NCBI GenBank assembly: GCA_902575815.1
Contig: CACGTA010000001.1
Span: forward strand, 8,147-72,146
Direction: 5' to 3'
DNA length: 64,000 nt
Source: an uncultured Alphaproteobacteria bacterium
GTDB lineage: Bacteria; Pseudomonadota; Alphaproteobacteria; HIMB59; GCA-002718135
Positions 8,664 through 26,985 of this stretch are shown here, piece after piece. Numbering within the stretch: position 1 is the first letter of the stretch; each line of letters starts with the position of its first letter. The notes beneath the pieces are model-generated. The model was not told the DNA's origin. It saw nothing but the letters and a program-made list of their open reading frames with translations, and did not search any database. The position numbers and the translations under genes are program-made.

Positions 8664-9132
8664 ATTTTTTTAATTTTGGCCAATCATTGTCACTTAAAAT
8701 ATAACCTACACAATTTCTAGAACCACACTTACAAATGTGATCCACAAAATCTGTATCAAAAGGATAACCATAGTTATAGAAAAGTTCGTCTCCTTTTTTT
8801 ATTCGTTTAATAGAAGAAATCCAAATCTCATTATCTATGATGTCTACTTCACAATTCGGATTACATGAGTGATTAATAAATTTTGCAAAATTATAATCGA
8901 CATCACCGTCTATGTCGTATCGCTTGTTTAGTTCAAAAACATAGACCATGCCGTTATTTTTATCTTTTTTTGCTTTGCGGATTTGTTTATCTGCTCTTTT
9001 GTCACCCTCTCTTTTAGTAACTTTATCACCAATATATTGGATTACTTTCTGGCCTTTTTTAATATTAGTTTTTGCAAATAAGCCAGAACCGTGAAGAGGT
9101 GATTTTTTTTTAAACCAAATTTTCTGTGTCAT
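8632..9132 (-). CDS. SET-domain protein (putative protein-lysine methyltransferase) with post-SET Cys cluster
   Basis: Motifs GSGLFA, NHSCNPN, ELFYNYG and C.CGS.NC. The start is taken at MTQKIWF (9132) rather than the ORF-track ATG at 9207. The 3-prime end overlaps phoR by 32 nt. Confidence 0.8.
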   Translation of the reverse strand: MTQKIWFKKKSPLHGSGLFAKTNIKKGQKVIQYIGDKVTKREGDKRADKQIRKAKKDKNNGMVYVFELNKRYDIDGDVDYNFAKFINHSCNPNCEVDIIDNEIWISSIKRIKKGDELFYNYGYPFDTDFVDHICKCGSRNCVGYILSDNDWPKLKKYEKKTKTKSK

Positions 9133-9217
9133 ACTGTTATTTTTATACAATACACACATATAATAAGAAATTGTATTATAAAATGATACATTTATGTATA
9201 AGACCAAAATTTAATTA

Positions 9218-10030
9218 ATGAAATTTGAAACAAACAAAAAATTTTACCGCACAATTTGGATTTCGGATACCCATCTAGGAACTAGTGGCTGTAAAAGCAA
9301 CATGCTTTTAGAATTCTTAGAAGAAACAGATTCAGAATATTTATTTTTAGTAGGCGACATTGTAGATGGATGGCGCATGCGTAAGAAAATGTATTGGCCA
9401 CAAGAACATAATGACGTTGTTCAAAAAGTTTTAAAGAAAGCGAAAAACGGAACTAAGGTAGTGCTTATTCCAGGAAATCATGATGAAGTATTAAAAGATT
9501 TTACAAATTTTTCTTTTGGAGAAATTTCGATCAAAAATGAAGATACGCATCAATTAGCTGATGGAAGAAAAGTACTTATTACACACGGAGATGAATTTGA
9601 TGCTGTGATCATTAATGCGAGGTGGTTAGCCAAAGTGGGATCAGCACTTTATGAATATTTACTAAAGTTAAATAATGTATTCAATTTTATTCGACGAAAG
9701 ATGGGCTTGTCTTATTGGTCACTGTCTCAATATTTAAAAAAGAAAACTAAGCATGCAACAAACTTTATTAGTAACTTTGAGTTTGCTGTATCTGACAGAG
9801 CTAGAAGAGAAAATGCCGATGTTGTCGTGTGCGGGCATATACATAGACCAGAAATAAAGGAATTAAATGGTGTTCTCTATTGTAATGATGGTGACTGGAT
9901 TGAAAGTTGCACAGCACTCGTTGAAGATGAAATTGGCAATTTATCAATTCTTAATTGGCCCGAAGAAAGAGAAAAATTAAAATTAATTTCTTTTGAAGAA
10001 AGACGAAAAATAAAAGAGGATGCAGCCTAA
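9218..10030 (+). CDS. plcP: Metallophosphoesterase of the PlcP type (phospholipase C for phosphate-stress lipid remodelling), copy 1
   Basis: Calcineurin-like motifs ISDTHLG, GDIVDG, GNHD, HGDEFD and GHIH. It overlaps a GT4 glycosyltransferase, which is the plcP-agt arrangement described for marine heterotrophs. Confidence 0.75.
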   Translation: MKFETNKKFYRTIWISDTHLGTSGCKSNMLLEFLEETDSEYLFLVGDIVDGWRMRKKMYWPQEHNDVVQKVLKKAKNGTKVVLIPGNHDEVLKDFTNFSFGEISIKNEDTHQLADGRKVLITHGDEFDAVIINARWLAKVGSALYEYLLKLNNVFNFIRRKMGLSYWSLSQYLKKKTKHATNFISNFEFAVSDRARRENADVVVCGHIHRPEIKELNGVLYCNDGDWIESCTALVEDEIGNLSILNWPEEREKLKLISFEERRKIKEDAA

Positions 10031-11021
10031 AAAAATCGCGTTAATTAGTGATGCGTGGGTTCCTCAGGTAAATGGCGTAGTTACGACATTTCAAAGCATT
10101 ATACCTATTCTAGAAAAAAAAGGTTTTGAAATTAAAATATTACATCCTGAGATGTTTAATAATTTTAGTTATCCTAGGTACAAAGAAATTAAAATTTCTT
10201 ACAATACTAAAAAAGTTACTGAAAAATTTTTTAAAGAATTTAATCCAGATATTGTTCATATAATGACTGAAGGTCCAGTAGGTTTTGCTGGTCGTAAGTA
10301 CTGTCTTAAAAATAAACTACAATACACTTCTTCCTTTCACACCCGTTTTCCTGACTACATTAAGCAAAGAGCTTTTATCCCAAAGAGATTTACATACTCC
10401 ATATTAAGAAGACTACATAGTGATTCAGAAAGAGTTCTTGTTCCATCAGTTTCAATGCTAAATGAGTTAAAAAAATATGATTTTAAAAATTTAGTAGTTT
10501 GGAATAGAGGTGTTGATACAGAATTATTTAATCCAAATAAAAGAGACACAAACAGTAAAGATAGACAACTGACTTATGTTGGTAGAGTAGCAATTGAAAA
10601 AAATATTGAAGAATTTTTAAATCTTAAAGGAAATTATAATAAAACTGTTGTGGGTGATGGTCCCGAATTACAAAAATATATTTATAAATATCCTGAAGTA
10701 AATTTTGTCGGTGTAAAAACTGGAGATGAACTAGCGAAATATTATGCAAACGCAGATGTATTTGTCTTTCCTTCTAAAACAGACACTTTAGGAAATGTAA
10801 TACTTGAAGCATTGGCTAGTGGAACACCAATTGCTGCATATCCAGTAACCGGGCCCATAGATGTGTTAACAGATGAAAAGATTAACACTTTAGATAATAA
10901 CTTGTTACAATCAGTTAAGAAGGCACTTAAAGTAAAAAGAGTTGATTGTAGAAATTTTACTCTTAAATTAACTTGGGACAAATGTGTGAATGAATTTTTA
11001 GAATTTATGGTAAAAGTTTAG
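10020..11021 (+). CDS. agt: GT4 glycosyltransferase, Agt-like diacylglycerol glycosyltransferase, copy 1
   Basis: N-terminal SDAWVPQVNGVV and C-terminal FVFPSKTDTLGNVILEALASGTP (GT-B, E-x7-E region). It overlaps plcP by 11 nt. Confidence 0.75.
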   Translation: MQPKKIALISDAWVPQVNGVVTTFQSIIPILEKKGFEIKILHPEMFNNFSYPRYKEIKISYNTKKVTEKFFKEFNPDIVHIMTEGPVGFAGRKYCLKNKLQYTSSFHTRFPDYIKQRAFIPKRFTYSILRRLHSDSERVLVPSVSMLNELKKYDFKNLVVWNRGVDTELFNPNKRDTNSKDRQLTYVGRVAIEKNIEEFLNLKGNYNKTVVGDGPELQKYIYKYPEVNFVGVKTGDELAKYYANADVFVFPSKTDTLGNVILEALASGTPIAAYPVTGPIDVLTDEKINTLDNNLLQSVKKALKVKRVDCRNFTLKLTWDKCVNEFLEFMVKV

Positions 11022-11041
11022 TTATTTAGGATAATTTTATA

Positions 11042-11698
11042 GTGACATTTTCTTTAAGACAAAAAATACTAGCAGAATTTATCGGGACATATTTTCTTGT
11101 ACTAACAGTTGTAGGTAGTGGAATTATGGGAGAGTTAATGTCAAATGACCTTGGTATAATATTACTAGGAAACACTATTGCAACAGGTGCCATTTTATAT
11201 GTAATTATTTCTATGTTTATTAATATCTCAGGAGCGTACTTTAATCCTGCTGTTGTATTAAGTGATATTATCCAAAAAAATATTCCTATTAATTACGGAA
11301 TAATTTTTATTTTTACTCAGATTATTGCTGGTATATTTGGTTGTTTAACTGCAAATTGGTATTTTGAATATCCTATAATTGAATGGTCACTCAATGAAAG
11401 AGTTGGGGTATTTAAATTCTTTTCAGAAATAATTGCAACTGTTGGATTATTATTAACTATTTTTATATTAAAAGAGGTAAACAAGGAAAGAATAGCTATT
11501 GGTGTAGCTCTATTTATTACCGCAGGATATTGGTTTACTTCATCAACAAGTTTTGCAAATCCAGCAGTAACTATAGGAAGAATGTTTACAGATAGCTTTA
11601 GTGGGATAAGTCCATCAAGTGTTCTAGGTTTTATTTTAGCTCAGATTATTGGTGCTCTTATTGCTACAGTTATTGTTAGATTGTTTTTTAAAAATTAG
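11042..11698 (+). CDS. MIP-family channel (aquaporin/aquaglyceroporin)
   Basis: Two NPA boxes (YFNPAV and FANPAVT) and six predicted helices. It has a GTG start 20 nt after agt and looks co-transcribed with it. Confidence 0.85.
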   Translation: MTFSLRQKILAEFIGTYFLVLTVVGSGIMGELMSNDLGIILLGNTIATGAILYVIISMFINISGAYFNPAVVLSDIIQKNIPINYGIIFIFTQIIAGIFGCLTANWYFEYPIIEWSLNERVGVFKFFSEIIATVGLLLTIFILKEVNKERIAIGVALFITAGYWFTSSTSFANPAVTIGRMFTDSFSGISPSSVLGFILAQIIGALIATVIVRLFFKN

Positions 11699-12600
11699 TT
11701 CAACATATTGTACAAGTAGCCTTCACGGATTCCATATCTTACAAAAATAATATTTTTAATGTTATAAAATGAAGCAAGGCTAAATAAAATATATGTAGAT
11801 AATTTTAATTTATCTAATCGATTGGGTTGGACAACATTCAATTTTTGAATTTGTTTTTTTTCCATAGAGTATAATTTGTGATAAAATATTTCTAACTCTG
11901 AAAATGGTATCATGTACCCATGTAATTTATTTTTCTTGATTCCATTTAGGTGCAAATGAAGTTTTGCAAGATTGCGCCACATGCCTCCAATAACATAAAT
12001 ATTTCCTACGTTTTTAGAAAATTTAAGAGATTGGTTTTTAAATTTAGAAAATAAAAAATTATCAAATTTAATTTTAGTAGTTTTGTACATATCAGATTCA
12101 CTTCTTAAGATGCCAATTTTTAAACTTTTAGTTTCAAGTATGTTTTCATTTTTTATAGTACTAAGTTCTAAACTTCCACCTCCCAAGTCAGCAACTAAAC
12201 CGATTGGATTTTTTATTGAACTAATTACACCTAGGGATCCGCATTTAGCCTCATTTTTTGGTGAGAGCACTTCTACTCTAACTGACTTTTTTTTCTTGAA
12301 GGGTTCAATAATTTCTTTTCCATTTATTGTTTCACGAATTGCGGCCGTTGCAATTATATGAATATCTGAGGACTCATAATCTTTTGCAATCTTAATATAT
12401 TCTTCTAAGCATTTTATAGCTTCTTTTATTTTTATCGATGGGAGTTTACCTGTTTTAATATTTTCACCTAATTTTAAGAATTCTCTTTTTTGATAAAGTA
12501 TTGGAAAAGGATGAATAGCTTGCGCGTATATAACTAGTCTAAATGTATTAGAGCCTAGATCAATAACTGTTATGGGATTTTTATTTTTCTTTTTAGCCAT
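11695..12600 (-). CDS. ppx: Ppx/GppA-family exopolyphosphatase (short form)
   Basis: N-terminal VIDLGSNTFRLVIY and DLGGGSLE actin-like ATPase-fold motifs. Confidence 0.8.
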   Translation of the reverse strand: MAKKKNKNPITVIDLGSNTFRLVIYAQAIHPFPILYQKREFLKLGENIKTGKLPSIKIKEAIKCLEEYIKIAKDYESSDIHIIATAAIRETINGKEIIEPFKKKKSVRVEVLSPKNEAKCGSLGVISSIKNPIGLVADLGGGSLELSTIKNENILETKSLKIGILRSESDMYKTTKIKFDNFLFSKFKNQSLKFSKNVGNIYVIGGMWRNLAKLHLHLNGIKKNKLHGYMIPFSELEIFYHKLYSMEKKQIQKLNVVQPNRLDKLKLSTYILFSLASFYNIKNIIFVRYGIREGYLYNMLN

Positions 12601-12632
12601 GGAAATGTATACATCTAAAGTATTAAACTCGA

Positions 12633-13091
12633 ATGCTACAAGTCTATTTATTACGTCACGCCAAATCTAGTTGGGATAATTTAGAACTTGATGACATTGA
12701 TAGGCCGCTGAATAAAAGAGGTATGAGAAACGCAAAACAATTTTCTAAAATATTAGATAAAAGAAAATTTCAAATTAATCAGATAATATGTTCTCCTTCT
12801 AAAAGAACAACTAGCACATATGATATAATTTCTAATTCATTTGATCGCTCAGTAAAATTTACAATTGATAACGATATTTATGAATGCCCACCAAATATAC
12901 TTGTAAGAAAAATTAAAAAATTAAAAAAAAATACTCTTATCATTGGACACAACCCTAGTTTGATAGAATCAATTAATATTTTATGTAATTCAAATATTGA
13001 ACATTTTCCAACCTGTGCTTTTGCTATAATATCCTTTAAAAATAGCTGGACTATTGATAAAATTTTAAAACCAAAAAATAAAAATTATTAA
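12633..13091 (+). CDS. Histidine phosphatase superfamily protein, SixA-like
   Basis: RHAKS (RHG-type) motif at the N-terminus and a later IIGHNP motif. It is 152 aa and lies upstream of ppk. Confidence 0.7.
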   Translation: MLQVYLLRHAKSSWDNLELDDIDRPLNKRGMRNAKQFSKILDKRKFQINQIICSPSKRTTSTYDIISNSFDRSVKFTIDNDIYECPPNILVRKIKKLKKNTLIIGHNPSLIESINILCNSNIEHFPTCAFAIISFKNSWTIDKILKPKNKNY

Positions 13092-13151
13092 AGAAATATG
13101 AATTTTTTATGAACATGTTTTTTTTATACCTAAAAAATATAAAAAAAAATT

Positions 13152-15251
13152 ATGTTAAAAAAAAATACCACTTATAACTATGCAAACAGGGAATTGTCTT
13201 GGCTAAAATTCAATGAAAGAGTCTTAAGTCAGACATCTGATAGTAAAATTCCACTTTTAGAAAGGGTTAGATTTTTATCAATAGCATTCTCTAATTTAGA
13301 TGAATTTTTTATGGTTAGAGTAGCAGGATTGAATGTTCAAAAATTTTCACGACATAAAAGTTTTGATGGATTAACACCACAACAACAACTCAAGCTGATA
13401 GATAAAGAAACATCGAAGATGATTTCAAATATAAAATCAATATGGATAGATTTACTAAGAGAGCTTTCAGAAAACAAAATCCATATAGATGTAGAAAAAA
13501 CACTGAAAACAAAAGATAAAACATTTATTAAAAATTATTTAGAAGAAAATAATTTGGGAGTTTTAACGCCAATTATTATTGATCCATCTCACCCATTTCC
13601 TTTTATACCAAATAAAGAAACAACCTTAGTATGTCGTTTAATAAATAATAAAAAAACTTTTTATGGAATACTGAGAGTGCCAGAGGGATTAGAAAAATTT
13701 ATTAAATTACCTGGTAAAAAAACACGTTTTGTATCTATGGAGACAGCCCTACTTATTTCTCTAAAAGAAATTTTCCAGTGTGATAGGGTTTTGGATAAAG
13801 GTGTTTTTAGACCAATTAGGAATAGTGAATTAGAATTAGGTGGTGAGGGAGAAGATTTATTTTTAGTATTTCAAAAAGCTATTTTTGAGAGAAGAAGACA
13901 AGAGGTAATAAGAATTGATTTTGATGAAAGTATATCTAGTCACTTAATTAAATTCATAAATAAAAAACTTAACTATAAGGATGTAAATACATATAAACTG
14001 CCAATACCCGTTAATCTTTCGAGTATAGAGTCAATTTTTTTGAAAGATTTTAAAAAATTATTTTTTCCAAAATTTAAGGTACGATTTCCTGAAAGAATTA
14101 AAGATTTTAAAAATGATTATTTTAAAGCTATAGCAAATAAAGATATTGTTATTCATCACCCTTTTGAATCTTTTGAAGTAGTGACTCAGTTTATTGATCA
14201 AGCTGCAGATGACCCAAAAGTCTTATCAATAAAACATACTTTATACCGAACTACTGATGACTCACCAATAGAAGCAAGTTTAGTTAGAGCAGCACAAAAA
14301 GGAAAATTAGTAACTGTCATTATAGAGTTGCAAGCACGTTTTGATGAAGAGCGTAACTTAAAATGGGCAAAAGAATTAGAATTAGCTGGAGCGCAAGTTG
14401 TTTTTGGCAATATTGATATGAAAACTCATGCAAAAATTACACTTGTAACAAGGAAGCAAATGAATTCTGTTGTAAATTACGCACATTATGGAACAGGTAA
14501 TTATCACCCAAGAAATGCAAGAGTTTATATGGATTTATCTTACTTCACCTGCGACAAAACATTAACAAATGATGCTGCAAAAATGTTTAATTATTTAACT
14601 AGTTATTCAGAACCAACCACAATAAAAAAAATAGTATATTCTCCAATAACTGCAAGAAACAAATTAAATGAACTAATTAGAAATGAAATTACAAATGCTG
14701 GAAAAAATAAGCCATCTGGAATAGTATGTAAGTGTAATTCTCTTGTTGATAAACAAATTATTGATGAATTTTATAAAGCATCTCAAAAAAATGTAAAAAT
14801 TGAATTGTTGATAAGAGGAATTTGCTCTCTAATACCTGGTAAAGAAAATCTATCGGAAAATATAGTTGTTAAAAGTATAATTGGTCGTTTTTTAGAACAT
14901 ACGAGAATATATTGTTTTTATAACGGTCATAAATTCCCTCATAGAAAAAATATCTTGTTTATTTCTTCTGCCGATTTAATGCAAAGAAATCTAGATAGGC
15001 GGGTTGAAACATTCATCCCTATTGAAAATGAAACTGTACATGAACAAATATTAAATCAGATCTTAATTGCCAGTATGGCAGATAATACAAATTCTTGGCA
15101 AATGTTGAGTAATGGCAATTATCAGAAAAAAGAAATATCAAGCAAAGAAAAAAAATTTTCCTCTCACAATTTTTTTATCAAAAATCCAAGCTTGTCTGGG
15201 AGGGGTTCAGCAAAACTCAAATCTAGAGCTAAGTCTAATTTAAAAATTTGA
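13152..15251 (+). CDS. ppk: Polyphosphate kinase 1
   Basis: 699 aa with N-terminal NRELSWL.FN.RVL, the IVIHHPFESF and KTHAK motifs, and two PLD-like C-terminal domains. Confidence 0.95.
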   Translation: MLKKNTTYNYANRELSWLKFNERVLSQTSDSKIPLLERVRFLSIAFSNLDEFFMVRVAGLNVQKFSRHKSFDGLTPQQQLKLIDKETSKMISNIKSIWIDLLRELSENKIHIDVEKTLKTKDKTFIKNYLEENNLGVLTPIIIDPSHPFPFIPNKETTLVCRLINNKKTFYGILRVPEGLEKFIKLPGKKTRFVSMETALLISLKEIFQCDRVLDKGVFRPIRNSELELGGEGEDLFLVFQKAIFERRRQEVIRIDFDESISSHLIKFINKKLNYKDVNTYKLPIPVNLSSIESIFLKDFKKLFFPKFKVRFPERIKDFKNDYFKAIANKDIVIHHPFESFEVVTQFIDQAADDPKVLSIKHTLYRTTDDSPIEASLVRAAQKGKLVTVIIELQARFDEERNLKWAKELELAGAQVVFGNIDMKTHAKITLVTRKQMNSVVNYAHYGTGNYHPRNARVYMDLSYFTCDKTLTNDAAKMFNYLTSYSEPTTIKKIVYSPITARNKLNELIRNEITNAGKNKPSGIVCKCNSLVDKQIIDEFYKASQKNVKIELLIRGICSLIPGKENLSENIVVKSIIGRFLEHTRIYCFYNGHKFPHRKNILFISSADLMQRNLDRRVETFIPIENETVHEQILNQILIASMADNTNSWQMLSNGNYQKKEISSKEKKFSSHNFFIKNPSLSGRGSAKLKSRAKSNLKI

Positions 15252-15266
15252 AAATGGAATTTAATC

Positions 15267-15315
15267 CCACTCACAATAATTGGACATAAGCAGGAAGAAA
15301 TAATACTGCGAGTGG
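15267..15315. terminator. Long hairpin inside repeat copy 1, between convergent ppk and agt2; possible bidirectional terminator
   Basis: CCACTCACA ... TGCGAGTGG (9 bp, one G-U on one strand), extended by AATAAT/ATTATT-type pairs. The T-rich tracts are not immediately adjacent. Confidence 0.35.
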
Positions 15316-15394
15316 TAAGATGTAATTAAATTTTATTTTTTACAGACGTGTTAATAGAATATTAAATTTTTATAAATTAAACTAATTTTTTAAT

Positions 15395-15458
15395 TTATTG
15401 GTTTTCAAATAAATTTTTTAGTTCCTTCAATTTTTGAAAATTGAATCTCTTACTTCTT
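15395..15458 (-). pseudogene. Decayed fragment of the arsC 3-prime end
   Basis: This stretch aligns to the last ~20 codons of arsC (18409-18469). A 1-nt deletion breaks the frame (ATTTTCAAAAATTGAAGG versus ATTTTTGATAAATTGAAAG). No upstream coding part is present. Confidence 0.55.
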
Positions 15459-15477
15459 AGTAACTATAATTTTAAAA

Positions 15478-16473
15478 TTAATTTTTTGCATTTACAACAT
15501 TTGATAGAAATTGATTTGCACATTTATCCCAAGTAAATTGCATTGCAAATTTTCTACAATCTTTTCTATCAATCTTTAAGGCTTTATTAAGTGAGTTTTC
15601 AATATTATTATCAAGGCTATCAATTAATGAGTTTTTTAAAATATCTTTAGGACCTGTTACTGGGTACGCAGCCACTGGTGTGCCAGAGGCTAAAGACTCT
15701 AAAATTACATTTCCAAATGTATCTGTTTTGGATGGGAATACCAATGCTTCAGCATTTGCATAATAGTTTGCTAGGTCTTGACCTTTTTTCATCCCAACGA
15801 AAGACACATATGGATATTTATTTTGTAATCGTTGCTTTTCTGGACCATCTCCAACAACAATTTTATGCATCTTAGTTCTTATTTCTAAAAACGCTTCGAT
15901 GTTTTTTTCTAATGAAACCCTACCAATGTAAACAATATACTTTTTCATTCCCTTTTTTCTTTTTAAAGGATTAAATAATTCAGTATTAACTCCCCTTGAC
16001 CAAATTTTAAGATTTTGAAATTGATATTTAGTTAATTCGTTACGCATAGATATTGTTGGAACCAATACATTACATGCATTTTTATGAAAATTTTTTAAAA
16101 AAGAGTACCCAATTATTTTTGGTATCATTATTCTTTGCTCTAAATATTCTGGAAATCTCGTATGAAAAGAGGTTGTATATCTCAACTTATTATTCTCACA
16201 GAATTTTTTCCCCGCAATTCCAACTGGTCCTTCAGTGGCAATATGTATAACATCTGGATCATAATCACCAAAAAATTTTTCTGTTATTTTTTTTGTATTA
16301 ATTGCTATTTTTATTTCCTTATACCAAGGATAACTAAAATTAGTAAACATCATTGGGTGGAGTACTTCAATTTGATACTTTTGTTTTAAAAATGGATTAA
16401 TATGTTGGTATGTATTTACCACACCATTAACTTGGGGAAGCCAAGCATCGGTAATGATCGCTAATTTTTTCAC
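15478..16473 (-). CDS. agt: GT4 glycosyltransferase, Agt-like, copy 2
   Basis: 331 aa and collinear with copy 1 (TDAWLPQVNGVV...FPSKTDTFGNVILESLASGTP). It is roughly two-thirds identical by eye. Confidence 0.75.
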   Translation of the reverse strand: MKKLAIITDAWLPQVNGVVNTYQHINPFLKQKYQIEVLHPMMFTNFSYPWYKEIKIAINTKKITEKFFGDYDPDVIHIATEGPVGIAGKKFCENNKLRYTTSFHTRFPEYLEQRIMIPKIIGYSFLKNFHKNACNVLVPTISMRNELTKYQFQNLKIWSRGVNTELFNPLKRKKGMKKYIVYIGRVSLEKNIEAFLEIRTKMHKIVVGDGPEKQRLQNKYPYVSFVGMKKGQDLANYYANAEALVFPSKTDTFGNVILESLASGTPVAAYPVTGPKDILKNSLIDSLDNNIENSLNKALKIDRKDCRKFAMQFTWDKCANQFLSNVVNAKN

Positions 16474-17276
16474 ACTAATACACTTTCTGCTAGTTTGTTA
16501 TGTTTATGTTGAAAAATTTTTTCTCTTTCAATTGACCAGTCAATAAGGGATAATTGTCCCTCATTATTTTCCACTAGCGCAGAACAACTCTCAACCCAAT
16601 CACCATCATTGCAATATAAAACTCCATTTAATTTTTTTATAATGGGCTTATGAATATGGCCGCACACAACAACATCAGCATTTGCTCTTTTAGCACTATC
16701 AGATACGGCAAACTCAAAGTTAGAAATAAAATTCGTGGCTCTTTTTGTTTGATGTTTGAGAAATTGAGATAATGACCAATAAGATAGACCTAGTTTTCTT
16801 CTGACAAAATTTAGATAGTTATTCAACTTTAATATAAATTCGTATAGAGATGACCCAATACTTGCCAGCCATTTAGCGTTTAATATAACTGCATCAAATT
16901 CATCACCATGTAAAACAAGGGCATTTCTTCCATCAGCTAATTTGTGTGTAAACTTATTTTTTATTGATATATTCCCTAGTGAAAAACTTGTGTAACTTTT
17001 CACAAGTTCGTCATGATTACCTGGGATAAATATTACTTTTGTACCTTTTCTTGCTTTACGCAAAATCTTCTGGATAATGTCATTATGAGTTTGATGCCAA
17101 TAAATTTTTTTTTTCATTCTCCATGCATCAATAATATCGCCAACTAAAAATAAATATTTTGAATCTGTTGATCTCAAAAATTCAAGAAGCATTTCACTCT
17201 TGCTATTTTCTGTTCCAAGATGAAGATCAGATATCCATATAGTTCTATAATATGAAACTGATTGCTGATCTTTCAT
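16470..17276 (-). CDS. plcP: PlcP-type metallophosphoesterase, copy 2
   Basis: It carries the same motif set as copy 1 (ISDLHLG, GDIIDA, GNHD, HGDEFD, GHIH). It overlaps agt2 by 4 nt. Confidence 0.75.
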   Translation of the reverse strand: MKDQQSVSYYRTIWISDLHLGTENSKSEMLLEFLRSTDSKYLFLVGDIIDAWRMKKKIYWHQTHNDIIQKILRKARKGTKVIFIPGNHDELVKSYTSFSLGNISIKNKFTHKLADGRNALVLHGDEFDAVILNAKWLASIGSSLYEFILKLNNYLNFVRRKLGLSYWSLSQFLKHQTKRATNFISNFEFAVSDSAKRANADVVVCGHIHKPIIKKLNGVLYCNDGDWVESCSALVENNEGQLSLIDWSIEREKIFQHKHNKLAESVLV

Positions 17277-17320: not shown

Positions 17321-17354
17321 ATTACATTAACTAAATTTTTTTTTTACAGAAGTA

Positions 17355-18197
17355 TTAATTAAATATTGAGTTTTTATTACTTGGATCTAATCTATAAGTG
17401 CTATTCCTTAAAAATTTTGTAATCTCAATAAGATTGCCAATTTCTTTTATGGTTTCAAAGGGTATTCTTTGTCCAATGTGAACATCAATTTTTTTTCCCA
17501 TTCTTCTTTTAAGTTCATATATCATTAAAGAATATCGAAAGACTTGCCCAATTTTATCAGCAACATGAAAAAGTTCACTATTTTGTCCTTCAAAAAAAAT
17601 TGGGAGGACAGGTGATTGAGTTTTCATTATTATTTTTGAAGTAAATTGTTTCCATTCACGATCTATTGCTTTGATTCCTTTTTTTAATTTTGGTTTCGTT
17701 GAAACTGATCCTGATGGAAAAATGATTAGTGCCCCATTATTTCTTAAGTGTTCTTCGCATTCTTTACGTGCAGCGATATTATTTATTAAAGCATTTCTAT
17801 TTTTTGAAAAATCAAGAGGAATAATTTTATTCTTAATAAGATCTGCTCCTTGTAAAACTTTATGCGTAATAATTTTGTAATCTTGTCTAATTTTACTAAT
17901 TAAAGAGCATATTGTAAGACCATCAGCTATTCCAAATGCATGGTTAGCGATTACTACAAGTTTGCCATTTTTAGGAATATTACTTTTAGAATGATAATGT
18001 GTCTGAACACGGAGACCTAATCTTTCAATTGCATCATGCCAAAAATTCTCTGGAGGTAAATTTTCTCTTAAATAATCCTCATACAACTTACGTAACTTAA
18101 TTTTACCCGTTCCCAATTCGGTTAATTGAATAATAATCTTTCCAACAGGATTAACTTCGGAGTTAGAAAAGGTAAGCGCTGGTTTATTAATTTTCAT
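17355..18197 (-). CDS. Lysophospholipid acyltransferase family protein (PlsC/OlsA-like)
   Basis: H-x4-D motif NHAFGIADG and the FPSGSVS block. It is 280 aa and co-directional with plcP2-agt2. Confidence 0.7.
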   Translation of the reverse strand: MKINKPALTFSNSEVNPVGKIIIQLTELGTGKIKLRKLYEDYLRENLPPENFWHDAIERLGLRVQTHYHSKSNIPKNGKLVVIANHAFGIADGLTICSLISKIRQDYKIITHKVLQGADLIKNKIIPLDFSKNRNALINNIAARKECEEHLRNNGALIIFPSGSVSTKPKLKKGIKAIDREWKQFTSKIIMKTQSPVLPIFFEGQNSELFHVADKIGQVFRYSLMIYELKRRMGKKIDVHIGQRIPFETIKEIGNLIEITKFLRNSTYRLDPSNKNSIFN

Positions 18198-18227: not shown

Positions 18228-18245
18228 TGTTAAACAATTGTTAAA
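18228..18245 (-). promoter_or_regulatory. Pho-box-like perfect heptamer pair upstream of the acyltransferase
   Basis: The minus strand reads TTTAACA-ATTG-TTTAACA and ends 30 nt upstream of the ATG. Confidence 0.45.
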
Positions 18246-18271
18246 GTACTCGAAAAAGGAGAAATAAAAAA

Positions 18272-18469
18272 TTAATCCCACTCACAATTATTGGTAATTA
18301 GCAGGAGGAAATAATACTGTGAGTGGTAAGAAGCATTTAAATTTTATTGTTTACAGATAGATTAATGGAATATTAAATTTTTATAAATTTAATTAATTTT
18401 TAACTTCATTAATTCTCAAATAAATTTTTTAGTTCTTTCAATTTATCAAAAATTGAATCTCTTACTTCT
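18272..18469. repeat. Direct repeat copy 2 (includes the arsC 3-prime end and downstream hairpin)
   Basis: See copy 1. This copy is continuous with the intact arsC. Confidence 0.85.
18278..18326 (-). terminator. Hairpin downstream of arsC; possible terminator or structured leader of the acyltransferase
   Basis: CCACTCACA ... TGTGAGTGG is a perfect 9 bp stem with AT extensions. On the minus strand it is followed by GATTAATTTTTTATTT. Confidence 0.4.
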
Positions 18470-18828
18470 CTAAATTTATCTAATTGGTTTGAACTAAAAT
18501 GATCTGATGCCGGATCATCAAATGGTATTGAAAATATCTGAGCTTTGGAATTTAAAACTGGACATACCTCTTCTTTACAAAGCGTAAAAACGGTATTTAA
18601 TTCATCTCTAAATTTGTTGTCTAAACTTTCAAAATCTTTTGAATAATGTTTTGATATATCAATATCGATTTCACCCATAACCTCGATAGCATTAGGATTA
18701 ACTTCTTTGGGCACTGATCCTGCACTTTGAATAATGCAATTAGGATATAATTTTTTTGCAATTCCTTCAGCCATTTGACTTCTTGCTGAATTAGCAACAC
18801 ACATAAAAAGAATATTTTTATTTTTCAT
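18409..18828 (-). CDS. arsC: Arsenate reductase, LMW-PTP (thioredoxin-coupled) type
   Basis: N-terminal ILFMCVANSARSQMAEG (C-x5-R P-loop) with later Cys residues (LCKEEVCP). It is 139 aa. Confidence 0.85.
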   Translation of the reverse strand: MKNKNILFMCVANSARSQMAEGIAKKLYPNCIIQSAGSVPKEVNPNAIEVMGEIDIDISKHYSKDFESLDNKFRDELNTVFTLCKEEVCPVLNSKAQIFSIPFDDPASDHFSSNQLDKFREVRDSIFDKLKELKNLFEN

Positions 18829-19052
18829 GTTAGCAAATAAATATATCCAAAAATAAATAGTGGGAGTTGTAAACCAAAGTTTGTGAGCAGAGCTCTATCT
18901 TTTGTCATATAACCAACAATTGACCAACCAACAGCACCTGTACCGTGAATAATTATGTTAATTGGATACGCATTTAAATTGGTTAATAATATTCCTGATA
19001 AAATTAACGCGGTGCTAAACCACTTAATTCTATTAATTGATAAATCTGTCAT
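18825..19052 (-). CDS. Small hydrophobic protein of unknown function (2-3 predicted helices)
   Basis: 75-aa ORF whose stop overlaps the arsC start by 4 nt (ATGA coupling). No recognisable family. Confidence 0.45.
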   Translation of the reverse strand: MTDLSINRIKWFSTALILSGILLTNLNAYPINIIIHGTGAVGWSIVGYMTKDRALLTNFGLQLPLFIFGYIYLLT

Positions 19053-19119
19053 ATCTTCTCCTAAATTCTATATATTGCGAATATTACACTTTACTTAAAG
19101 ATAAAGATATTAATCAAAT

Positions 19120-23831: not shown

Positions 23832-24641
23832 TTATTTTATACCCGAAGTTGCAAAACTCTCTACAAACTGTCTTTGAAAAATAATAAATGCAATTATTAG
23901 TGGTGCGGTTACCATTAATGTCCCTGCGCTTATAGTAGCCCACTCGATACCTGATTCCTCCATAGAAAAGATAGCTAAACCAACATTTAAAATTCTAGTT
24001 TCCTCTGAGTTAGTTATTATTAAAGGCCACAAATAATTATTCCAATGATAAGATATTGATACAAGTCCATAAGCTAAAAAAGTAGGTATAGATAATGGTA
24101 TGTAAACATGCCATAAAATTCGTAATGCTCCAGCACCATCAATCCTCGCAGAATCATCTAGCTCTTTTGGAACAGTTTTGAAAGCTTGTCTTAAAACAAA
24201 AATTCCAAAAGCAGATGCAATGTAGGGAAGGCTAATTGCAGGAATGGTATCTATCAAATTTAAGAATTTAATTGTTTTATAATTTTCGATAAGAATGATT
24301 TCTGGATTAATCATTAGTTGAATTAAAACTAATCCAAAAAGTATGTTCTTAAAAGGAAACTCATATCTTGCAAAAGCAAATGCAGTCAGAGAACATAAGA
24401 TAAACTGGCATGAAGTGGTCATTGTAACGTATATAAATGTGTTGAACATATATCTTGCAAAAGGAGCTTGTGACCAAGCATTTTCAAAATTGTATAAGGT
24501 CAGAGGGGCAAACAAATCAAATTTAACTTGATATTCTATTGGGTGTATCGAAGCCCAGATTGCATATAAGAGCGGTAGTAACCATAAAAATCCAAGTAAC
24601 CAAGCACCAATAATATTAATATTTTTATAGAATGAATACAT
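23832..24641 (-). CDS. CUT1-type ABC permease (UgpE/MalG-like)
   Basis: 269-aa membrane protein with the EAA loop LDDSARIDGAGALRILWHVYIPL. Confidence 0.8.
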   Translation of the reverse strand: MYSFYKNINIIGAWLLGFLWLLPLLYAIWASIHPIEYQVKFDLFAPLTLYNFENAWSQAPFARYMFNTFIYVTMTTSCQFILCSLTAFAFARYEFPFKNILFGLVLIQLMINPEIILIENYKTIKFLNLIDTIPAISLPYIASAFGIFVLRQAFKTVPKELDDSARIDGAGALRILWHVYIPLSIPTFLAYGLVSISYHWNNYLWPLIITNSEETRILNVGLAIFSMEESGIEWATISAGTLMVTAPLIIAFIIFQRQFVESFATSGIK

Positions 24642-24643
24642 TT

Positions 24644-25522
24644 TTATTGGTAATGGACCTTTCTATCCAATAAAAAAATTTGACCAATTCCTATTATTGA
24701 CAATAATATAATTAGTAAAACCGATAATGTTATTGCGTATGCTGTATCCCAAAATTCAAAACCATTCTCATAAATATAATAGAGTAATAAAGCGCTGTTG
24801 TAATTTGGACCTCCACCAGTCATAGTGAATAAATGTTCTATTCGTGTAAAGGCAGTAATTACTGCATTGACTGAAACAAATAATAAGGTTGGTGTTATCA
24901 TTGGTAGTGTAATTTTGTAAAACATTTGCCAACTATTAGCCCCTTCAATAATTGCTGCCTCTTTCATTTCCCTAGGTATTCCTTGAAGAGCAGCTAGAAA
25001 AAAAATCATGTAAAAACCAGACTCTTTCCAAATACTTACAGCAATAATACCCCATAAAACTTGATCAGGGTTTCCTAAAATATTTGTATTTTGGAAACCA
25101 AATAATGATCCAACTTGATCAATTAATCCAAAACCAGGAAGAAAAAAAAAGAGCCATATATTACCAACAGCTATTAAGGGTAAAACTACAGGTAAAAAAT
25201 ATGCAAAACGAAGCAATGGTCTACCGGGTAACTTGCTGTTTACCCATTGCGCCATAATTATTGCAATAATTATTGAAGATGGGATTGTAGAAATTGCATA
25301 AACAATATTGTTAGACATAACCTTCCAAAAAATGGGGTCTGAAAACATATGTTCATAATTTTCAATACCTTTAAACTTACTTGGTTTTCTCCCTTTAGGA
25401 GTAGAAAAAAAACTCATATAAATTGTTTTAACAACAGGTATGTGAACAAAAGTTAATAATAATATGAATCCAGGCGATAAAAGTAAAATTACTGGTATAT
25501 GTTTTTTAATTTTAGTTATCAT
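24644..25522 (-). CDS. CUT1-type ABC permease (UgpA/MalF-like)
   Basis: 292-aa membrane protein with the EAA loop KEAAIIEGANSWQMFYKITLP. Confidence 0.8.
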   Translation of the reverse strand: MITKIKKHIPVILLLSPGFILLLTFVHIPVVKTIYMSFFSTPKGRKPSKFKGIENYEHMFSDPIFWKVMSNNIVYAISTIPSSIIIAIIMAQWVNSKLPGRPLLRFAYFLPVVLPLIAVGNIWLFFFLPGFGLIDQVGSLFGFQNTNILGNPDQVLWGIIAVSIWKESGFYMIFFLAALQGIPREMKEAAIIEGANSWQMFYKITLPMITPTLLFVSVNAVITAFTRIEHLFTMTGGGPNYNSALLLYYIYENGFEFWDTAYAITLSVLLIILLSIIGIGQIFLLDRKVHYQ

Positions 25523-25555
25523 AAAAAAAACGGCACTATTATTAACTAGTGCCGT
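25523..25555 (-). terminator. Intrinsic terminator/attenuator hairpin between the binding-protein gene and the permeases
   Basis: The minus strand reads ACGGCACT-(10 nt)-AGTGCCGT followed by eight T. Confidence 0.65.
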
Positions 25556-25569
25556 TTGATATTTTTTCT

Positions 25570-26844
25570 TTATCTGTAATCTTTTAGTATTTTATCAATT
25601 TCGGCATGCGCCTCTAAAAGAGCAGTTTTAGGATCTTTTTCCCCAGCAACTGCTGCTTCTAACGCTCTATTAAAAATTGAAACAGTTTTAGGTTGCTCGT
25701 AGGTCGAAAATTCTGGACCTGCATACTCCAACTGATCTCTTGCAACAGCTGGATATGGAAATTCTTTTAAAAATTCTTTCATTTCATCAGACTCCCAAGT
25801 CTCAGCTCTAGGTGCAACATAACCAGTGGCTTTTGTCCAGGCAACAGACTGTTTAGGTTCTGTTATCCATTTTACAAAGTCTTTTGTTGCTTGCTGTTCC
25901 TCTTCTGTAGTGTCAATTGATAGATAAAAATTTCCTCCTCCAACTGGTGCTCCAAATTGTTTAATACCAGGAATGAAAGCTACACCCCAATCAAACGGAG
26001 CATTATTTCTGACGTTTGTCAGATTTCCAGTAGTAGTCCACATCATTGCAGTTTGACCCTCAAAAAATGCCTGTGGAGTAGATCCCCATTCAAGTATACC
26101 TGGTCTCATCACCCCTTCAGTAGTACTAAGAGCTACAAGTTTTTCTAATGCTTCAATGGCTTCTGGTGAATTAATATATGTTTCAGTGCCATTATCGTTC
26201 ATAATTTTTCCACCATTGCCATAAACAATTGCACTAAATAACCAGTATGGAAAACCAGCAGATGGAATTCTTATTCCGTATTGACTTACATTTCCATCAG
26301 AATCTTTGATTGTTAATTTTTTTGCAACTTCTAGCTGTTCATCCCAAGTCTTAGGTGGATTTTCAGGATCTAATCCCGCAGCTCTAAAAGCGTCCTTATT
26401 GTAATAGAGTACTGGTGTTGATCTTTGAAATGGAATCCCATAAGTTTTACCATCAACTTGACCATTAGCCATAAAAGCAGGATAAAAACCACCTATCCAA
26501 TTATCAATTTCGTCTTGAGTTAATATATCGTCCCAAGCCATTACACATTCTTCGTCTATATATTTAAAAATTGTAACAGCAATCATAACTGATGTTGCAG
26601 GAGCTGTTCCAGATTTACATGCTGTTAGAAATTTAGTATCTGTATCTGTATAACTTCCTGTGAAAACAGCTTTCACATTTACATCTGGATTTAATTTTGT
26701 GTAATCTTCTGCAAATTTCTCAATTGCCTGAGCAGCTCCACCACCTACAGCGACTGGAAAATAAAATTCTAGGTCAATAGCCCTTACACTTAATGATGTT
26801 ATTACCACGGTTAAAGAGATAATAAGTAATTTAATTATATTCAT
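25570..26844 (-). CDS. Family-1 extracellular solute-binding protein, UgpB-like (glycerol-3-phosphate/glycerophosphodiester candidate)
   Basis: It has a signal peptide, is 424 aa, and carries the YGIPF.RSTPVLYYNKD block typical of CUT1 binding proteins. It is divergent from a GpdQ-like diesterase. Confidence 0.75.
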   Translation of the reverse strand: MNIIKLLIISLTVVITSLSVRAIDLEFYFPVAVGGGAAQAIEKFAEDYTKLNPDVNVKAVFTGSYTDTDTKFLTACKSGTAPATSVMIAVTIFKYIDEECVMAWDDILTQDEIDNWIGGFYPAFMANGQVDGKTYGIPFQRSTPVLYYNKDAFRAAGLDPENPPKTWDEQLEVAKKLTIKDSDGNVSQYGIRIPSAGFPYWLFSAIVYGNGGKIMNDNGTETYINSPEAIEALEKLVALSTTEGVMRPGILEWGSTPQAFFEGQTAMMWTTTGNLTNVRNNAPFDWGVAFIPGIKQFGAPVGGGNFYLSIDTTEEEQQATKDFVKWITEPKQSVAWTKATGYVAPRAETWESDEMKEFLKEFPYPAVARDQLEYAGPEFSTYEQPKTVSIFNRALEAAVAGEKDPKTALLEAHAEIDKILKDYR

Positions 26845-26893
26845 TATAAATCTCCTATTTTTATCAATGAAATTTTTTTGGTTAAGATATAAA

Positions 26894-26911
26894 TATTAAT
26901 ATTTTGTTAAA
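26894..26911 (-). promoter_or_regulatory. Pho-box-like phased heptamer pair upstream of the Ugp-like operon
   Basis: The minus strand reads TTTAACA-AAAT-ATTAATA. Confidence 0.3.
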
Positions 26912-26985
26912 TTTTAACTAATTTATTTTTAAATTTTTTAATTCTTTTTTATTATTTTTTTTTTATGTATATTTATTAAATATTT

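Follow-up and report, generated by a model that had tools for sequence, protein, structure and literature searches.

Related systems have been described in other members of the SAR11 lineage. The characterised diacylglycerol glycosyltransferase Agt of HTCC7211 (GTcp) lost its activity with the mutation F258A (PMC8231724), and its residue T162, implicated by docking, is a predicted diacylglycerol contact. SAR11 raises ornithine lipid under phosphorus stress (PMC6298996), and O-acyltransferases of the OlsF-N/GlsA type make up the Pfam family PF19576 (review PMC11631085). An ArsC-aquaporin arsenic module has been proposed for SAR11 as well, the aquaporin serving arsenite efflux together with LMWP-type ArsC (PMC6426599). 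The DNA analysed here, a window of 64,000 nucleotides from an uncultured alphaproteobacterium, carries two plcP-agt pairs that fall outside the clade of GTcp, at about 45 % identity to it; they are 45-54 % identical to a pair from another SAR11 lineage (locus L110) that belongs to the clade which the HTCC7211 Agt resembles. The earlier note had cited the SAR11 PlcP and Agt activities as established; the HTCC7211 enzymes lie in a different clade, and the activities of both copies are thus predictions.

The best explanation of the region is that it is the central part of a modular island for phosphate stress in a SAR11 (Pelagibacterales) genome. We give a probability of roughly 0.65 to the account as a whole, which combines an ancient duplication of the plcP-agt pair, a repeat-flanked cassette carrying the second copy, roles in lipid remodelling, and a MIP channel that belongs with arsC. 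The features on which it rests are the following:

9130-9217, divergent intergenic region between the SET-phoR-pstSCAB-phoU-phoB operon (minus) and plcP1 (plus), from the ORF map and sequence
9218-10030, plus, plcP1: type-1 PlcP-like metallophosphoesterase, 270 aa (Pfam Metallophos)
10020-11021, plus, agt1: type-1 GT4 diacylglycerol glycosyltransferase homologue, 333 aa (Pfam Glyco_transf_4 and Glycos_transf_1)
11042-11698, plus, MIP gene: atypical MIP channel, 218 aa (Pfam MIP)
11695-12600, minus, ppx: exopolyphosphatase family (Pfam Ppx-GppA, E = 2.7e-43)
12633-13091, plus, SixA-like histidine phosphatase gene (Pfam His_Phos_1; NCBIfam SixA E = 1.9e-13, below cut-off)
13152-15251, plus, ppk1: polyphosphate kinase, with four of four PPK domains
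15242-15465, left direct-repeat copy: native ppk/arsC spacer with a hairpin of 9-bp stem and 63 nt remaining from the 3' end of arsC
15478-16473, minus, agt2: type-2 GT4 diacylglycerol glycosyltransferase homologue, 331 aa (Pfam Glyco_transf_4 and Glycos_transf_1)
16470-17276, minus, plcP2: type-2 PlcP-like metallophosphoesterase, 268 aa (Pfam Metallophos)
17333-17382, third, partial spacer copy covering the acylT stop codon, 80 % over 50 nt (repeat search)
17355-18197, minus, acylT: PF19576 (OlsF-N/GlsA-type) O-acyltransferase, 280 aa (Pfam Acyltransf_2 and Acyltransferase)
18229-18245, minus, direct repeat TTTAAC-N5-TTTAAC, within the 55 cassette-specific nt that precede acylT (pattern search)
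18253-18477, right direct-repeat copy: diverged spacer copy with hairpin and the 3' end of the intact arsC
18409-18828, minus, arsC: LMWP-type arsenate reductase (NCBIfam arsC_pI258 family, E = 1.2e-26; syntenic gene call and Pfam LMWPc agree)

According to the ORF map, the two pairs stand in inverted orientation and their genes overlap, as had been reported, by 11 nt in copy 1 and 4 nt in copy 2; 13 independent single-cell assemblies show the same layout, which is therefore not an assembly artefact. The MIP gene does begin with GTG 20 nt beyond agt1, while the cassette operon opens with acylT, 78 nt ahead of plcP2, and the start of arsC overlaps a small DUF6552 ORF upstream. The intergenic region at 9130-9217 is presumed to be a shared promoter region of the SET-phoR-pst operon and plcP1. 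Alignment of orthologous upstream regions gave short conserved blocks only, and no Pho box was established by this alignment, by a repeat pattern search or by a promoter scan, the last being uninformative in such AT-rich DNA. The TTTAAC-N5-TTTAAC repeat upstream of acylT is a candidate regulator-binding site; the pattern occurs at three sites in the window, all within 18.2-19.2 kb, against 2.2 expected, which is not significant.

Both pairs are old and both are functionally constrained. PlcP1 and PlcP2 align free of gaps with 178 of 254 residues identical (70 %; E = 9e-146), and Agt1 and Agt2 share 199 of 328 (61 %; E = 7e-156). The DNA is not, as had been claimed, much more diverged than the protein, with nucleotide identities of 69 % (plcP) and 67 % (agt). 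The earlier note's view of old paralogues and no recent duplication is nevertheless borne out: synonymous sites are near saturation (third-position identity 0.52 for plcP and 0.48 for agt; pS 0.66-0.71), the longest identical run between the copies is 19 nt, and copy-to-copy DNA comparison found no conversion tracts between the pairs. The DxH, GD, GNHD, HGD and GHIH metal-binding motifs are intact in PlcP1 and the metal-binding motifs likewise in PlcP2, and the GT4 motifs, too, are kept in both pairs. For plcP1, dN/dS is 0.03 between the window and locus L105 and 0.03-0.05 within type 1; for agt1 it is 0.18 against L105, and against locus L109 it is 0.10 for plcP2, 0.13 for agt2 and 0.17 for acylT. 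With values of 0.03-0.2, both pairs are under selection that maintains them.

By homology, PlcP would strip the head groups from phospholipids under phosphate starvation and leave diacylglycerol, onto which Agt would transfer the sugar of a UDP-sugar, yielding glycolipids. The two Agt types differ at residues implicated in GTcp. Agt2 is ancestral-like at all 14 such positions and Agt1 conserves 12 of them, the exceptions being L257 in place of GTcp F258, a position within the UDP-sugar motif of the donor pocket, and N162 in place of T162; both are found in all nine type-1 representatives. In GTcp numbering, F258L and T162N are fixed in type 1 only, at positions 95-99 % invariant elsewhere, and five of five strongly polarised diagnostic Agt columns are derived in type 1. 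Judged by these residues, the type-1 Agt is the derived paralogue and the type-2 Agt the canonical enzyme. As the lineage-fixed changes affect donor-pocket and diacylglycerol-contact residues, the specificity of the type-1 Agt is probably different. The two pairs could instead be redundant, the second copy adding enzyme dosage under phosphate stress with no specialisation. This is possible, though we think it unlikely: catalytic and substrate-binding motifs are all kept in both pairs, the two PlcPs show few differences, which are conservative and symmetric, and either type alone suffices in many lineages, but a dosage-only pair would not be expected to persist as two distinct, deeply diverged clades, and the type-1 Agt has its fixed changes at positions otherwise nearly invariant.

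The main structural fact, which the earlier note had missed, is that copy 2 belongs to a unit, flanked by repeats, that some close relatives carry and others lack. The genes acylT-plcP2-agt2 form a three-gene operon and a 2.8-kb unit, with 2787 bp of unique sequence, in the terminator region of the convergent ppk and arsC genes. A repeat search with extension found direct repeats of 224 nt bracketing this cassette, 83 % identical and spaced by 3011; they consist of the spacer and the last 63 nt of arsC, a content backed by alignments with cassette-less loci. The right copy is the diverged one, at about 83-87 % identity to the native spacer, and is 99 % identical to its counterpart in L109. Related loci show intermediate arrangements at this junction: the order in L109 and L119 is acylT, a gene of 470 aa, a 57-nt ppk 3' remnant and plcP2-agt2, and L122 has only acylT and a leftover of the 470-aa gene's 3' part. 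The cassette was thus probably built stepwise in the ppk/arsC terminator region. Compared with L109, L102 and L122, the third spacer copy at 17333-17382 is a deletion scar where a longer cassette variant has the 470-aa gene.

Thirteen single-cell assemblies carry the cassette, and three others (L001-3), whose flanks are 96.9-99 % identical DNA, do not. In these three, ppk abuts an intact arsC with a lone spacer of the left-copy type. The direct repeats offer homologous recombination a substrate for removing the unit precisely, and close relatives do lack it, retaining a single hybrid spacer. A midpoint-rooted neighbour-joining tree of ppx-sixA-ppk, a single region of 3.5 kb from a group in which recombination is known to be frequent, places the cassette-less trio as one clade nested among cassette-bearing lineages, which makes one loss more parsimonious than several gains. 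The opposite direction, with the cassette-less state ancestral and the unit recently gained in the window's lineage when foreign SAR11 DNA with its own copy of the ppk/arsC junction integrated, would explain why the right repeat is the diverged one, as expected if it was brought in with the insert, and the duplicated junction fragments (from the 3' end of arsC and, in L109, also of ppk) resemble the footprint of a single-crossover integration. We consider it unlikely, given the nested position of the trio and a stretch already in the cassette-less spacer that matches the 3' end of acylT at 80 %; this stretch suggests that acylT once stood at the ppk/arsC site. Loss among the close relatives is thus our preferred direction, and transfer of the cassette between SAR11 lineages is likely to have occurred too.

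The earlier note gave each pair its own third gene. Among the two pairs of the window, the acyltransferase is indeed specific to copy 2, but the MIP gene is no partner of copy 1 in particular, as it also follows type-2 pairs (L091, L094) and is missing from many type-1 loci. The channel has NPAV at both NPA motifs and lacks the canonical Arg after the second; among relatives of solved structure, NIP2-1 matches best (E = 1.4e-7). A working part in lipid remodelling, with a flux of glycerol or head-group products, seems quite unlikely to us: the gene is always directly downstream of the last agt, at 20 nt in the window and 12 nt in L091 and with a 1-nt overlap in L094, which suggests co-transcription, yet many plcP-agt loci do without it and, short contigs ending inside the gene aside, it was never seen without arsC in the loci examined. 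Where ppx-sixA-ppk is absent it stands beside arsC, and the two adjoin in L131. The MIP gene and arsC of the window match the published module, whose efflux proposal also speaks against a lipid role, and the channel is a fixture of the locus that probably serves ArsC as its arsenite channel. Under phosphate stress, ArsC would reduce the arsenate that is taken up, and the arsenite would leave through the channel, whose gene is probably co-transcribed with plcP1-agt1 though functionally it would belong with arsC.

The product of acylT is, strictly, not PlsC/OlsA-like, as first described, but of the other O-acyltransferase type. It matches PF19576 with 59.1 bits (cut-off 27), keeps the NHxFGxxDG and FPSG blocks, and has a core SAR11 paralogue beside glpX with 60-66 % identity. 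Its best matches are the O-acyltransferase, N-terminal half of OlsF (NCBIfam, E = 5e-42; score 144 against an equivalog cut-off of 620) and GlsA (E = 2e-25; 90 against 260), and the hint of an aminolipid that had been seen in the gene gains from this assignment. In L110/L111, of another Pelagibacteraceae lineage, an OlsB-like N-acyltransferase gene (NCBIfam OlsB, E = 3e-67) is directly followed by a PF19576 acyltransferase, 34 % identical to AcylT, beside plcP-agt and phoR-pst; no OlsB-type gene was found in the window or in related loci of this lineage. From family and analogy we infer an aminolipid role, in which an OlsB-type enzyme, with its gene elsewhere, would make a lyso-aminolipid for AcylT to O-acylate, raising the amount of ornithine-type lipid. 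That AcylT is an ordinary lysophosphatidate acyltransferase (PlsC) supplying phospholipid or diacylglycerol would agree with a weak match to PF01553 (34.9 bits; TIGR00530, E = 3.7e-5) and with the missing OlsB neighbour, but is improbable in view of the stronger PF19576, OlsF and GlsA matches, the family member right behind an OlsB-like gene, and the known rise of ornithine lipid in stressed SAR11.

As for the origin of the two pairs, sequence comparison indicates that the whole pair was duplicated once, long ago, within the SAR11 lineage. In distance-based, bootstrapped neighbour-joining trees that included 75 outgroups for PlcP and 57 for Agt, the SAR11 types 1 and 2 together form a clade with 100 % support for both proteins, and the same topology is obtained with 102 database homologues. 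Type 1 is supported by 100 % (PlcP) and 99.5 % (Agt), type 2 by 93 % (PlcP) and 77 % (Agt), the last value being the weak point of the tree. The strong divergence with saturated synonymous sites and the insertion-like, repeat-flanked setting of copy 2 would suit independent horizontal acquisitions from different donor lineages, as once proposed, but the joint monophyly, the distance of the closest outgroups (at most 56 % identity for PlcP and 46 % for Agt, against 61-76 % between the types), the existence of tandem loci and a uniform G+C of 27-30 % across the region make this very improbable. A tandem duplication would be the simplest form of this event, as the order plcP-agt-plcP-agt survives in some lineages (L091-93, L120-121), and lineages would afterwards have retained type 1, type 2 or both: a lone type-2 pair occupies the ancestral site in L094-96 and L122-123, and a lone type-1 pair is found in L001-3, L105, L107, L108 and L124-136. 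The type-1 pair of the window, flanked by the SET/phoR-pst operon and the MIP gene, would then mark the ancestral site.

The ORF map, the Pfam searches and the protein alignments all confirm what the earlier note had read from the sequence, namely two diverged plcP-agt pairs in inverted orientation. Between the pairs lie ppx (- strand), a gene for a SixA-like phosphatase (+) and ppk (+); to their left is a SET-phoR-pstSCAB-phoU-phoB operon and to their right arsC, a DUF6552 ORF, a PhoU-like gene and a PHO4/PiT transporter gene. We refer to this phosphate-stress gene region as the island. On the ORF map, the pairs and their immediate partners are placed as follows:

9218-10030, + strand: plcP1, overlapping agt1 by 11 nt
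10020-11021, + strand: agt1
11042-11698, + strand: MIP channel gene with a GTG start, 20 nt 3' of agt1
15478-16473, - strand: agt2, overlapping plcP2 by 4 nt
16470-17276, - strand: plcP2
17355-18197, - strand: acylT, the acyltransferase gene, 78 nt upstream of plcP2

The Pfam families found are Metallophos, GT4/GT1, MIP and Acyltransf_2. Each of the six proteins has an exact match in public marine data; their clusters at 90 % identity comprise 118 to 1045 sequences, some of them named Pelagibacteraceae. PlcP1 and PlcP2 are 70 % identical without gaps and Agt1 and Agt2 61 %; contrary to the impression that the DNA is much more diverged than the protein, nucleotide identity is 69 % between the plcP copies and 67 % between the agt copies. 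Between the copies, synonymous sites are nearly saturated, with pS of 0.66-0.71 and an identity of about 0.5 at third positions, and a search for gene conversion between the paralogues found no tract, the longest identical run being 19 nt. The genes of both pairs are kept under purifying selection: in unsaturated comparisons, dN/dS is 0.10 for plcP2, 0.13 for agt2 and 0.17 for acylT between the window and the related locus L109, and 0.03 for plcP1 and 0.18 for agt1 between the window and L105, a locus with a type-1 pair (types 1 and 2 being those of copies 1 and 2). Both PlcPs score above the PF00149 cut-off with complete metal-binding motifs (D17xH19, G46D47, G86NHD, H123GD and G206HIH), the fixed differences between the PlcP types are few, conservative and symmetric, with two derived per type, and plcP, overlapping agt in both copies, stays linked to it in all related loci.

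The earlier note offered old paralogues or independent acquisitions as the origin of the pairs. A profile search with both Agts recovered two SAR11-like cluster groups, 71-95 % and 60-63 % identical to Agt1, beyond which the next matches reached at most 54 %, and in a neighbor-joining tree of 119 homologues these groups were sister clades, apart from all others. In bootstrap trees of PlcP and Agt from ten SAR11 gene copies, with 75 (PlcP) and 57 (Agt) outgroup loci, the clade uniting SAR11 types 1 and 2 had a support of 100 % for both proteins, the type 1 clade 100 % for PlcP and 99.5 % for Agt, and the type 2 clade 93 % and 77 %, respectively. The two trees are congruent, and the pair would therefore have been duplicated as a unit; independent acquisition from distant donors is unlikely, since the highest outgroup identity is just 56 % for PlcP and 46 % for Agt. 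Together with the near saturation of synonymous sites, the monophyly of the two types supports and sharpens the reading of the pairs as ancient paralogues, born, as far as the trees can tell, inside SAR11. In the literature searched, neither two plcP-agt sets nor an acylT-plcP2-agt2 cassette was found described for SAR11.

The two-pair island is a variation on the known PlcP-Agt lipid-remodelling system. In the operon of 'Candidatus Pelagibacter' sp. HTCC7211 (PB7211_983 for PlcP and PB7211_960 for the Agt known as GTcp; Sebastian et al. 2016, PMC4796936; PMC8231724), a metallophosphoesterase gene is likewise followed by an overlapping GT4 gene, with the same families, catalytic residues and phosphate-stress neighbourhood, whereas the window has two pairs, one of them borne on a cassette. 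GTcp was placed through peptides back-translated from published primers; WP_008545403.1 was not surfaced by the cluster look-ups. These peptides (MKILIVT, PLVNGVVRT, EIRLSLNV, HIATEGPLGFMAR, TTSFHTRF and the C-terminal LNISPN) match neither type 1 nor type 2, which read TEGPVG and EIKI[SA], and resemble the group of Fonsibacter and the database protein P0177, outside the type-1/2 clade. The neighbor-joining tree of database homologues, which includes neither GTcp nor Atu2297, gives types 1 and 2 a clade of their own beside GTcp-like and Fonsibacter groups. Proteins like the database homologue P0120 were considered as GTcp and set aside, their match in residue numbering being judged coincidental and their composition not SAR11-like. 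Another database Agt, P0103, is identical to the type of P0092 over most of its first 200 residues and continues into an unrelated GT4 C-terminal half; either two domains were swapped by natural recombination or the assembly is chimeric. The GTcp-type pair of the related locus L110 is 45-47 % (Agt) and 48-54 % (PlcP) identical to the pairs of the window, and its PlcP served as the stand-in for the validated PlcPs (HTCC7211 PB7211_983, MED193 and SMc00171). The Agt of Agrobacterium tumefaciens (Atu2297), a bifunctional glucosyl/glucuronosyl-diacylglycerol synthase (as cited in PMC8231724), is a distant homologue in the same GT4 subfamily, with diacylglycerol as acceptor and induction by phosphate deficiency; the donor range is established for Atu2297 and GTcp, not for types 1 and 2.

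Some SAR11 populations thus hold two deeply diverged plcP-agt sets, neither of the biochemically characterised type, and the lipid products of HTCC7211 are therefore not simply transferable to them. Phosphate stress is gauged in ocean metagenomes by the abundance of PlcP, with SAR11 contributing much of the signal; given two sets per cell, counts of the plcP marker do not equal counts of cells.

Both Agts have the GT-B domains (PF13439 with PF00534/PF13692), and neither type shows any variation at the catalytic His and Asp or at the Arg and Lys of GRVxxEKN. The motif set of the Agt/GTcp group (the His-Asp dyad, GRVAxEKN and FPSxTDTFG) is complete in type 2 and has one deviation in type 1: the UDP-sugar motif reads TDTFG in the former and TDTLG in the latter, where the equivalent of F258 is Leu in 9/9 representatives. 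Between 9 type-1 and 7 type-2 representatives, 11 columns are fixed differently; comparison with 102 outgroups polarises five of them, and at all five (S104, D112, L132, S143 and L257) type 1 has the derived state. For GTcp, Wei et al. (2021, PMC8231724) examined 14 residues by experiment or by docking and found that F258A abolished activity. Twelve of the 14 are invariant across both types and two are altered in type 1 only, F258 to Leu (Phe in 100 of the 102 outgroups) and T162 to Asn (GTcp numbering); type 2 has the ancestral state at every position implicated in GTcp. The paralogues thus appear asymmetric, and the changes fixed in type 1, which involve a residue of the UDP-sugar pocket, one in predicted contact with the diacylglycerol and a site beside the catalytic His, hint at an altered specificity, a lead rather than a proof. 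If true, the type-1 Agt would make a glycolipid, or use a donor or an acceptor, not yet assigned in SAR11, and the substitutions are the exact residues at which glycolipid donor specificity can be tested. To the wider reading, in which the type-1 Agt has been neofunctionalised and acylT-plcP2-agt2 is a self-contained 'phosphorus-free membrane' cassette exchanged by recombination at duplicated repeats, we would give about one chance in four.

The junction of the cassette carries the clearest traces of its history. In the window, acylT-plcP2-agt2 lies between 224-nt direct copies (15242-15465 and 18253-18477) that are 83 % identical and start 3011 nt apart; each consists of the ppk/arsC spacer, with its 9-bp-stem hairpin, and the terminal 63 nt of arsC, which on the left are a dead fragment and on the right continue into the intact gene. 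In the related loci L001-3, arsC follows about 150 nt after ppk, the flanking DNA sharing 96.9-99 % identity with that of the window, and the cassette-less genomes have one spacer, of the left type, joined to an intact arsC, which is the product expected of recombination between the two repeats. Further footprints are a third, partial spacer copy across the acylT stop codon (80 % over 50 nt), an acylT 3' end with a following hairpin homologous to the ppk/arsC spacer in L102, 57 nt left over from the 3' end of ppk, which in L109 follow the gene for a 470-aa protein, and a 3' remnant of this 470-aa gene between acylT and ppk in L122. Read together, these footprints indicate a unit that was assembled and trimmed stepwise, in several recombination events, at a single convergent terminator. 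The cassette shows neither a recombinase gene nor terminal inverted repeats or attC-like sites, every ORF in the 9-21 kb region having been assigned and none to a recombinase. Carriage by phage is unsupported, no close relatives of plcP or acylT having been found on viral contigs. In the ppx-sixA-ppk tree, the three genomes without the cassette group together in one clade within the carriers, which makes one loss the most parsimonious account of the absence; this tree, rooted at its midpoint, represents a single region, and a gain is the possible, less parsimonious alternative.

Flexible genomic islands of streamlined marine bacteria are turned over by homologous recombination, without integrases. 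The island resembles them in its modular, nested content at one site, in having no integrase or transposase and in repeats that come from native gene ends; unlike in those, the footprints in the window are explicit, with the 3' ends of arsC and ppk duplicated and one terminator spacer present three times, and four alternative states were recovered among close relatives. On the wider reading given one chance in four above, SAR11 populations would gain, lose and exchange the cassette by homologous recombination at terminator and gene-end repeats, in a recombinase-free flux tuned to the phosphate regime. The repeat-flanked cassette with its nested states provides a testable picture of how adaptive modules may come and go without mobile-element genes.

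The conserved hairpin (CCCACTCACA ... TGTGAGTGG) has a loop of about 31 nt with AGGAGG and lies in the ppk/arsC spacer, at 15262-15320 and 18273-18331 of the window; the same hairpin also follows acylT in L102. It may act as a bidirectional terminator; it had no match in Rfam, its loop exceeds the length that the terminator scan can handle, and a short ORF inside it is not conserved. The 470-aa protein occurs with acylT in L109 (9951-11363), L119 (5457-6866) and L102 (3504-4916), its remnant in L122 lying at about 13220-13310, and its gene has been deleted from the window's variant of the cassette. The protein is very acidic and rich in G, D and N, with a signal-peptide-like N-terminus, and had no match in Pfam, NCBIfam or PDB.

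The contexts of the related loci, collected through exact-protein look-ups and one metagenome scan, fall into the following states:

SET, type-1 plcP-agt, then directly DUF6552 and PhoU-like-PiT, with MIP, ppx, sixA, ppk and arsC all missing from the locus: L105, L107, L108, L124-130, L133, L134, L136
Type-1 pair, MIP and arsC, without ppx-sixA-ppk: L131
Type-1 pair, MIP, ppx-sixA-ppk, arsC: L001-3
Type-2 pair, MIP, ppx-sixA-ppk, arsC: L094-96
Tandem type-1 then type-2 pair, then MIP: L091-93, L120-121
Type-2 pair, MIP, ppx-sixA-ppk, acylT alone before arsC: L122-123
Layout of the window: 13 single-cell assemblies
Layout of the window with the 470-aa gene between acylT and plcP2: L109, L119

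In the loci compared, the MIP gene sits after whichever agt comes last, type 2 included, and travels with arsC; the channel is thus a companion of arsC and not, as had been proposed, the partner of copy 1. An LMWP-ArsC and an adjacent aquaporin of SAR11, enriched in low-phosphate waters, were proposed as an arsenic-resistance module by Giovannoni et al. (2019, PMC6426599), and this reading fits the MIP/arsC contexts seen here. The module of SAR11 Ia.3 (PMC6426599), with its AqpS-like aquaporin, has the same two gene families in the same island, and the two are adjacent in L131, whereas in the window they are kept apart by ppx-sixA-ppk and the cassette, and the channel is putatively co-transcribed with plcP1-agt1. 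The channel (PF00230, 93 bits) is unusually short at 218 aa and has two NPA motifs with a V after each (NPAV...GR), without the canonical selectivity-filter Arg right after the second, which reads NPAVTIGR; among solved structures, its closest relative is NIP2-1, a metalloid channel of plants, at E = 1.4e-7 only. When 9218-11021 of the window is compared with 7686-9495 of L105, PlcP1 is 99 % identical and the neighbouring Agt1 just 82 %, with dS of 0.23 for plcP1 and 0.62 for agt1; the comparison suggests that agt1, beside the variable junction, is a recombination mosaic or has a faster turnover. The C-terminus of Agt1 varies with the island state (...EFMVKV versus ...SQIDSKN and forms of 340-341 aa).

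The acyltransferase, earlier called PlsC/OlsA-like, belongs instead to PF19576 (59.1 bits against a cut-off of 27, residues 46-273), the family of the OlsF-N/GlsA-type lyso-aminolipid O-acyltransferases, which is distinct from the PF01553 of OlsA/PlsC (reviewed in PMC11631085). The best NCBIfam matches of AcylT, the acylT product, are the O-acyltransferase half of OlsF (E = 5e-42) and GlsA (E = 2e-25); both scores are far below the equivalog cut-offs (144.1 against 620 for OlsF, matched in its N-terminal half only, and 89.6 against 260 for GlsA), and AcylT is therefore a relative of OlsF/GlsA, not an equivalog. Unlike OlsF, it is a stand-alone protein of 280 aa, unfused to an OlsB-like domain. 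The NHxFGxxDG and FPSG blocks are kept throughout its homologues, which comprise a group of 83-100 % identity, whose members lie at this island or accompany the 470-aa gene, and, after a gap, a group of 60-66 %, which belongs to the SAR11 core and is placed between glpX and the sox genes. The core paralogue (L101 6001-7487, L103 6001-7573) lies between glpX and a gene for a conserved 198-226-aa coiled-coil-like protein, upstream of sox; this downstream protein is not OlsB-like.

No OlsB-like gene was found in the window or in the related loci of this lineage, and coupling to OlsB was seen only for a 34 % identical AcylT homologue in L110 and L111. The order there is a DAG-kinase-like gene, plcP-agt, then convergent OlsB-like (NCBIfam OlsB, E = 3e-67) and PF19576 acyltransferase genes, then phoR and pst. 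This arrangement mirrors olsB-olsA, with N-acylation expected to precede O-acylation, although the O-acyltransferase is of PF19576 and not a PF01553 OlsA/PlsC. The ornithine lipid of SAR11 is reported to rise under P stress (PMC6298996), which makes a copy of the O-acyltransferase in a stress island plausible. The suggestion of an aminolipid product thus gains from the family assignment and from L110/L111 and loses from the equivalog scores and the missing OlsB neighbour. L110 (6204-10581) and L111 form a compact three-route lipid locus adjoining phoR-pst in the GTcp-type Pelagibacteraceae lineage.

Upstream of acylT are 55 nt of the cassette's own sequence, holding a TTTAAC-N5-TTTAAC direct repeat that has a similar counterpart before the PhoU-like gene; the window contains 3 such sites where 2.2 would be expected, which is no enrichment. 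Aligned orthologous upstream regions contained no convincing Pho box motif, and CTGTCAT-like strings, which overlap the SET and DUF6552 start codons, were discounted as Pho boxes. Scans for sigma-70 promoters and terminators gave fewer matches than shuffled sequences and are uninformative in such AT-rich DNA.

The DUF6552 ORF encodes a small membrane protein of 75 aa (about 18826-19053, - strand) and overlaps the start of arsC; it directly abuts agt in the islands without the MIP to arsC segment and is kept in every island state seen. A second variable spot of the island, at 23832-27780 of the window, was compared with the left flanks of L081-L090. An ABC transporter (SBP_bac_1 and two permeases) adjoins a second metallophosphoesterase, of 262-264 aa, in the window, L081, L087 and L099; the transporter is missing from L082-84, L086 and L088-90, and in L085 a ugp-like transporter and a GDPD glycerophosphodiesterase take its place.
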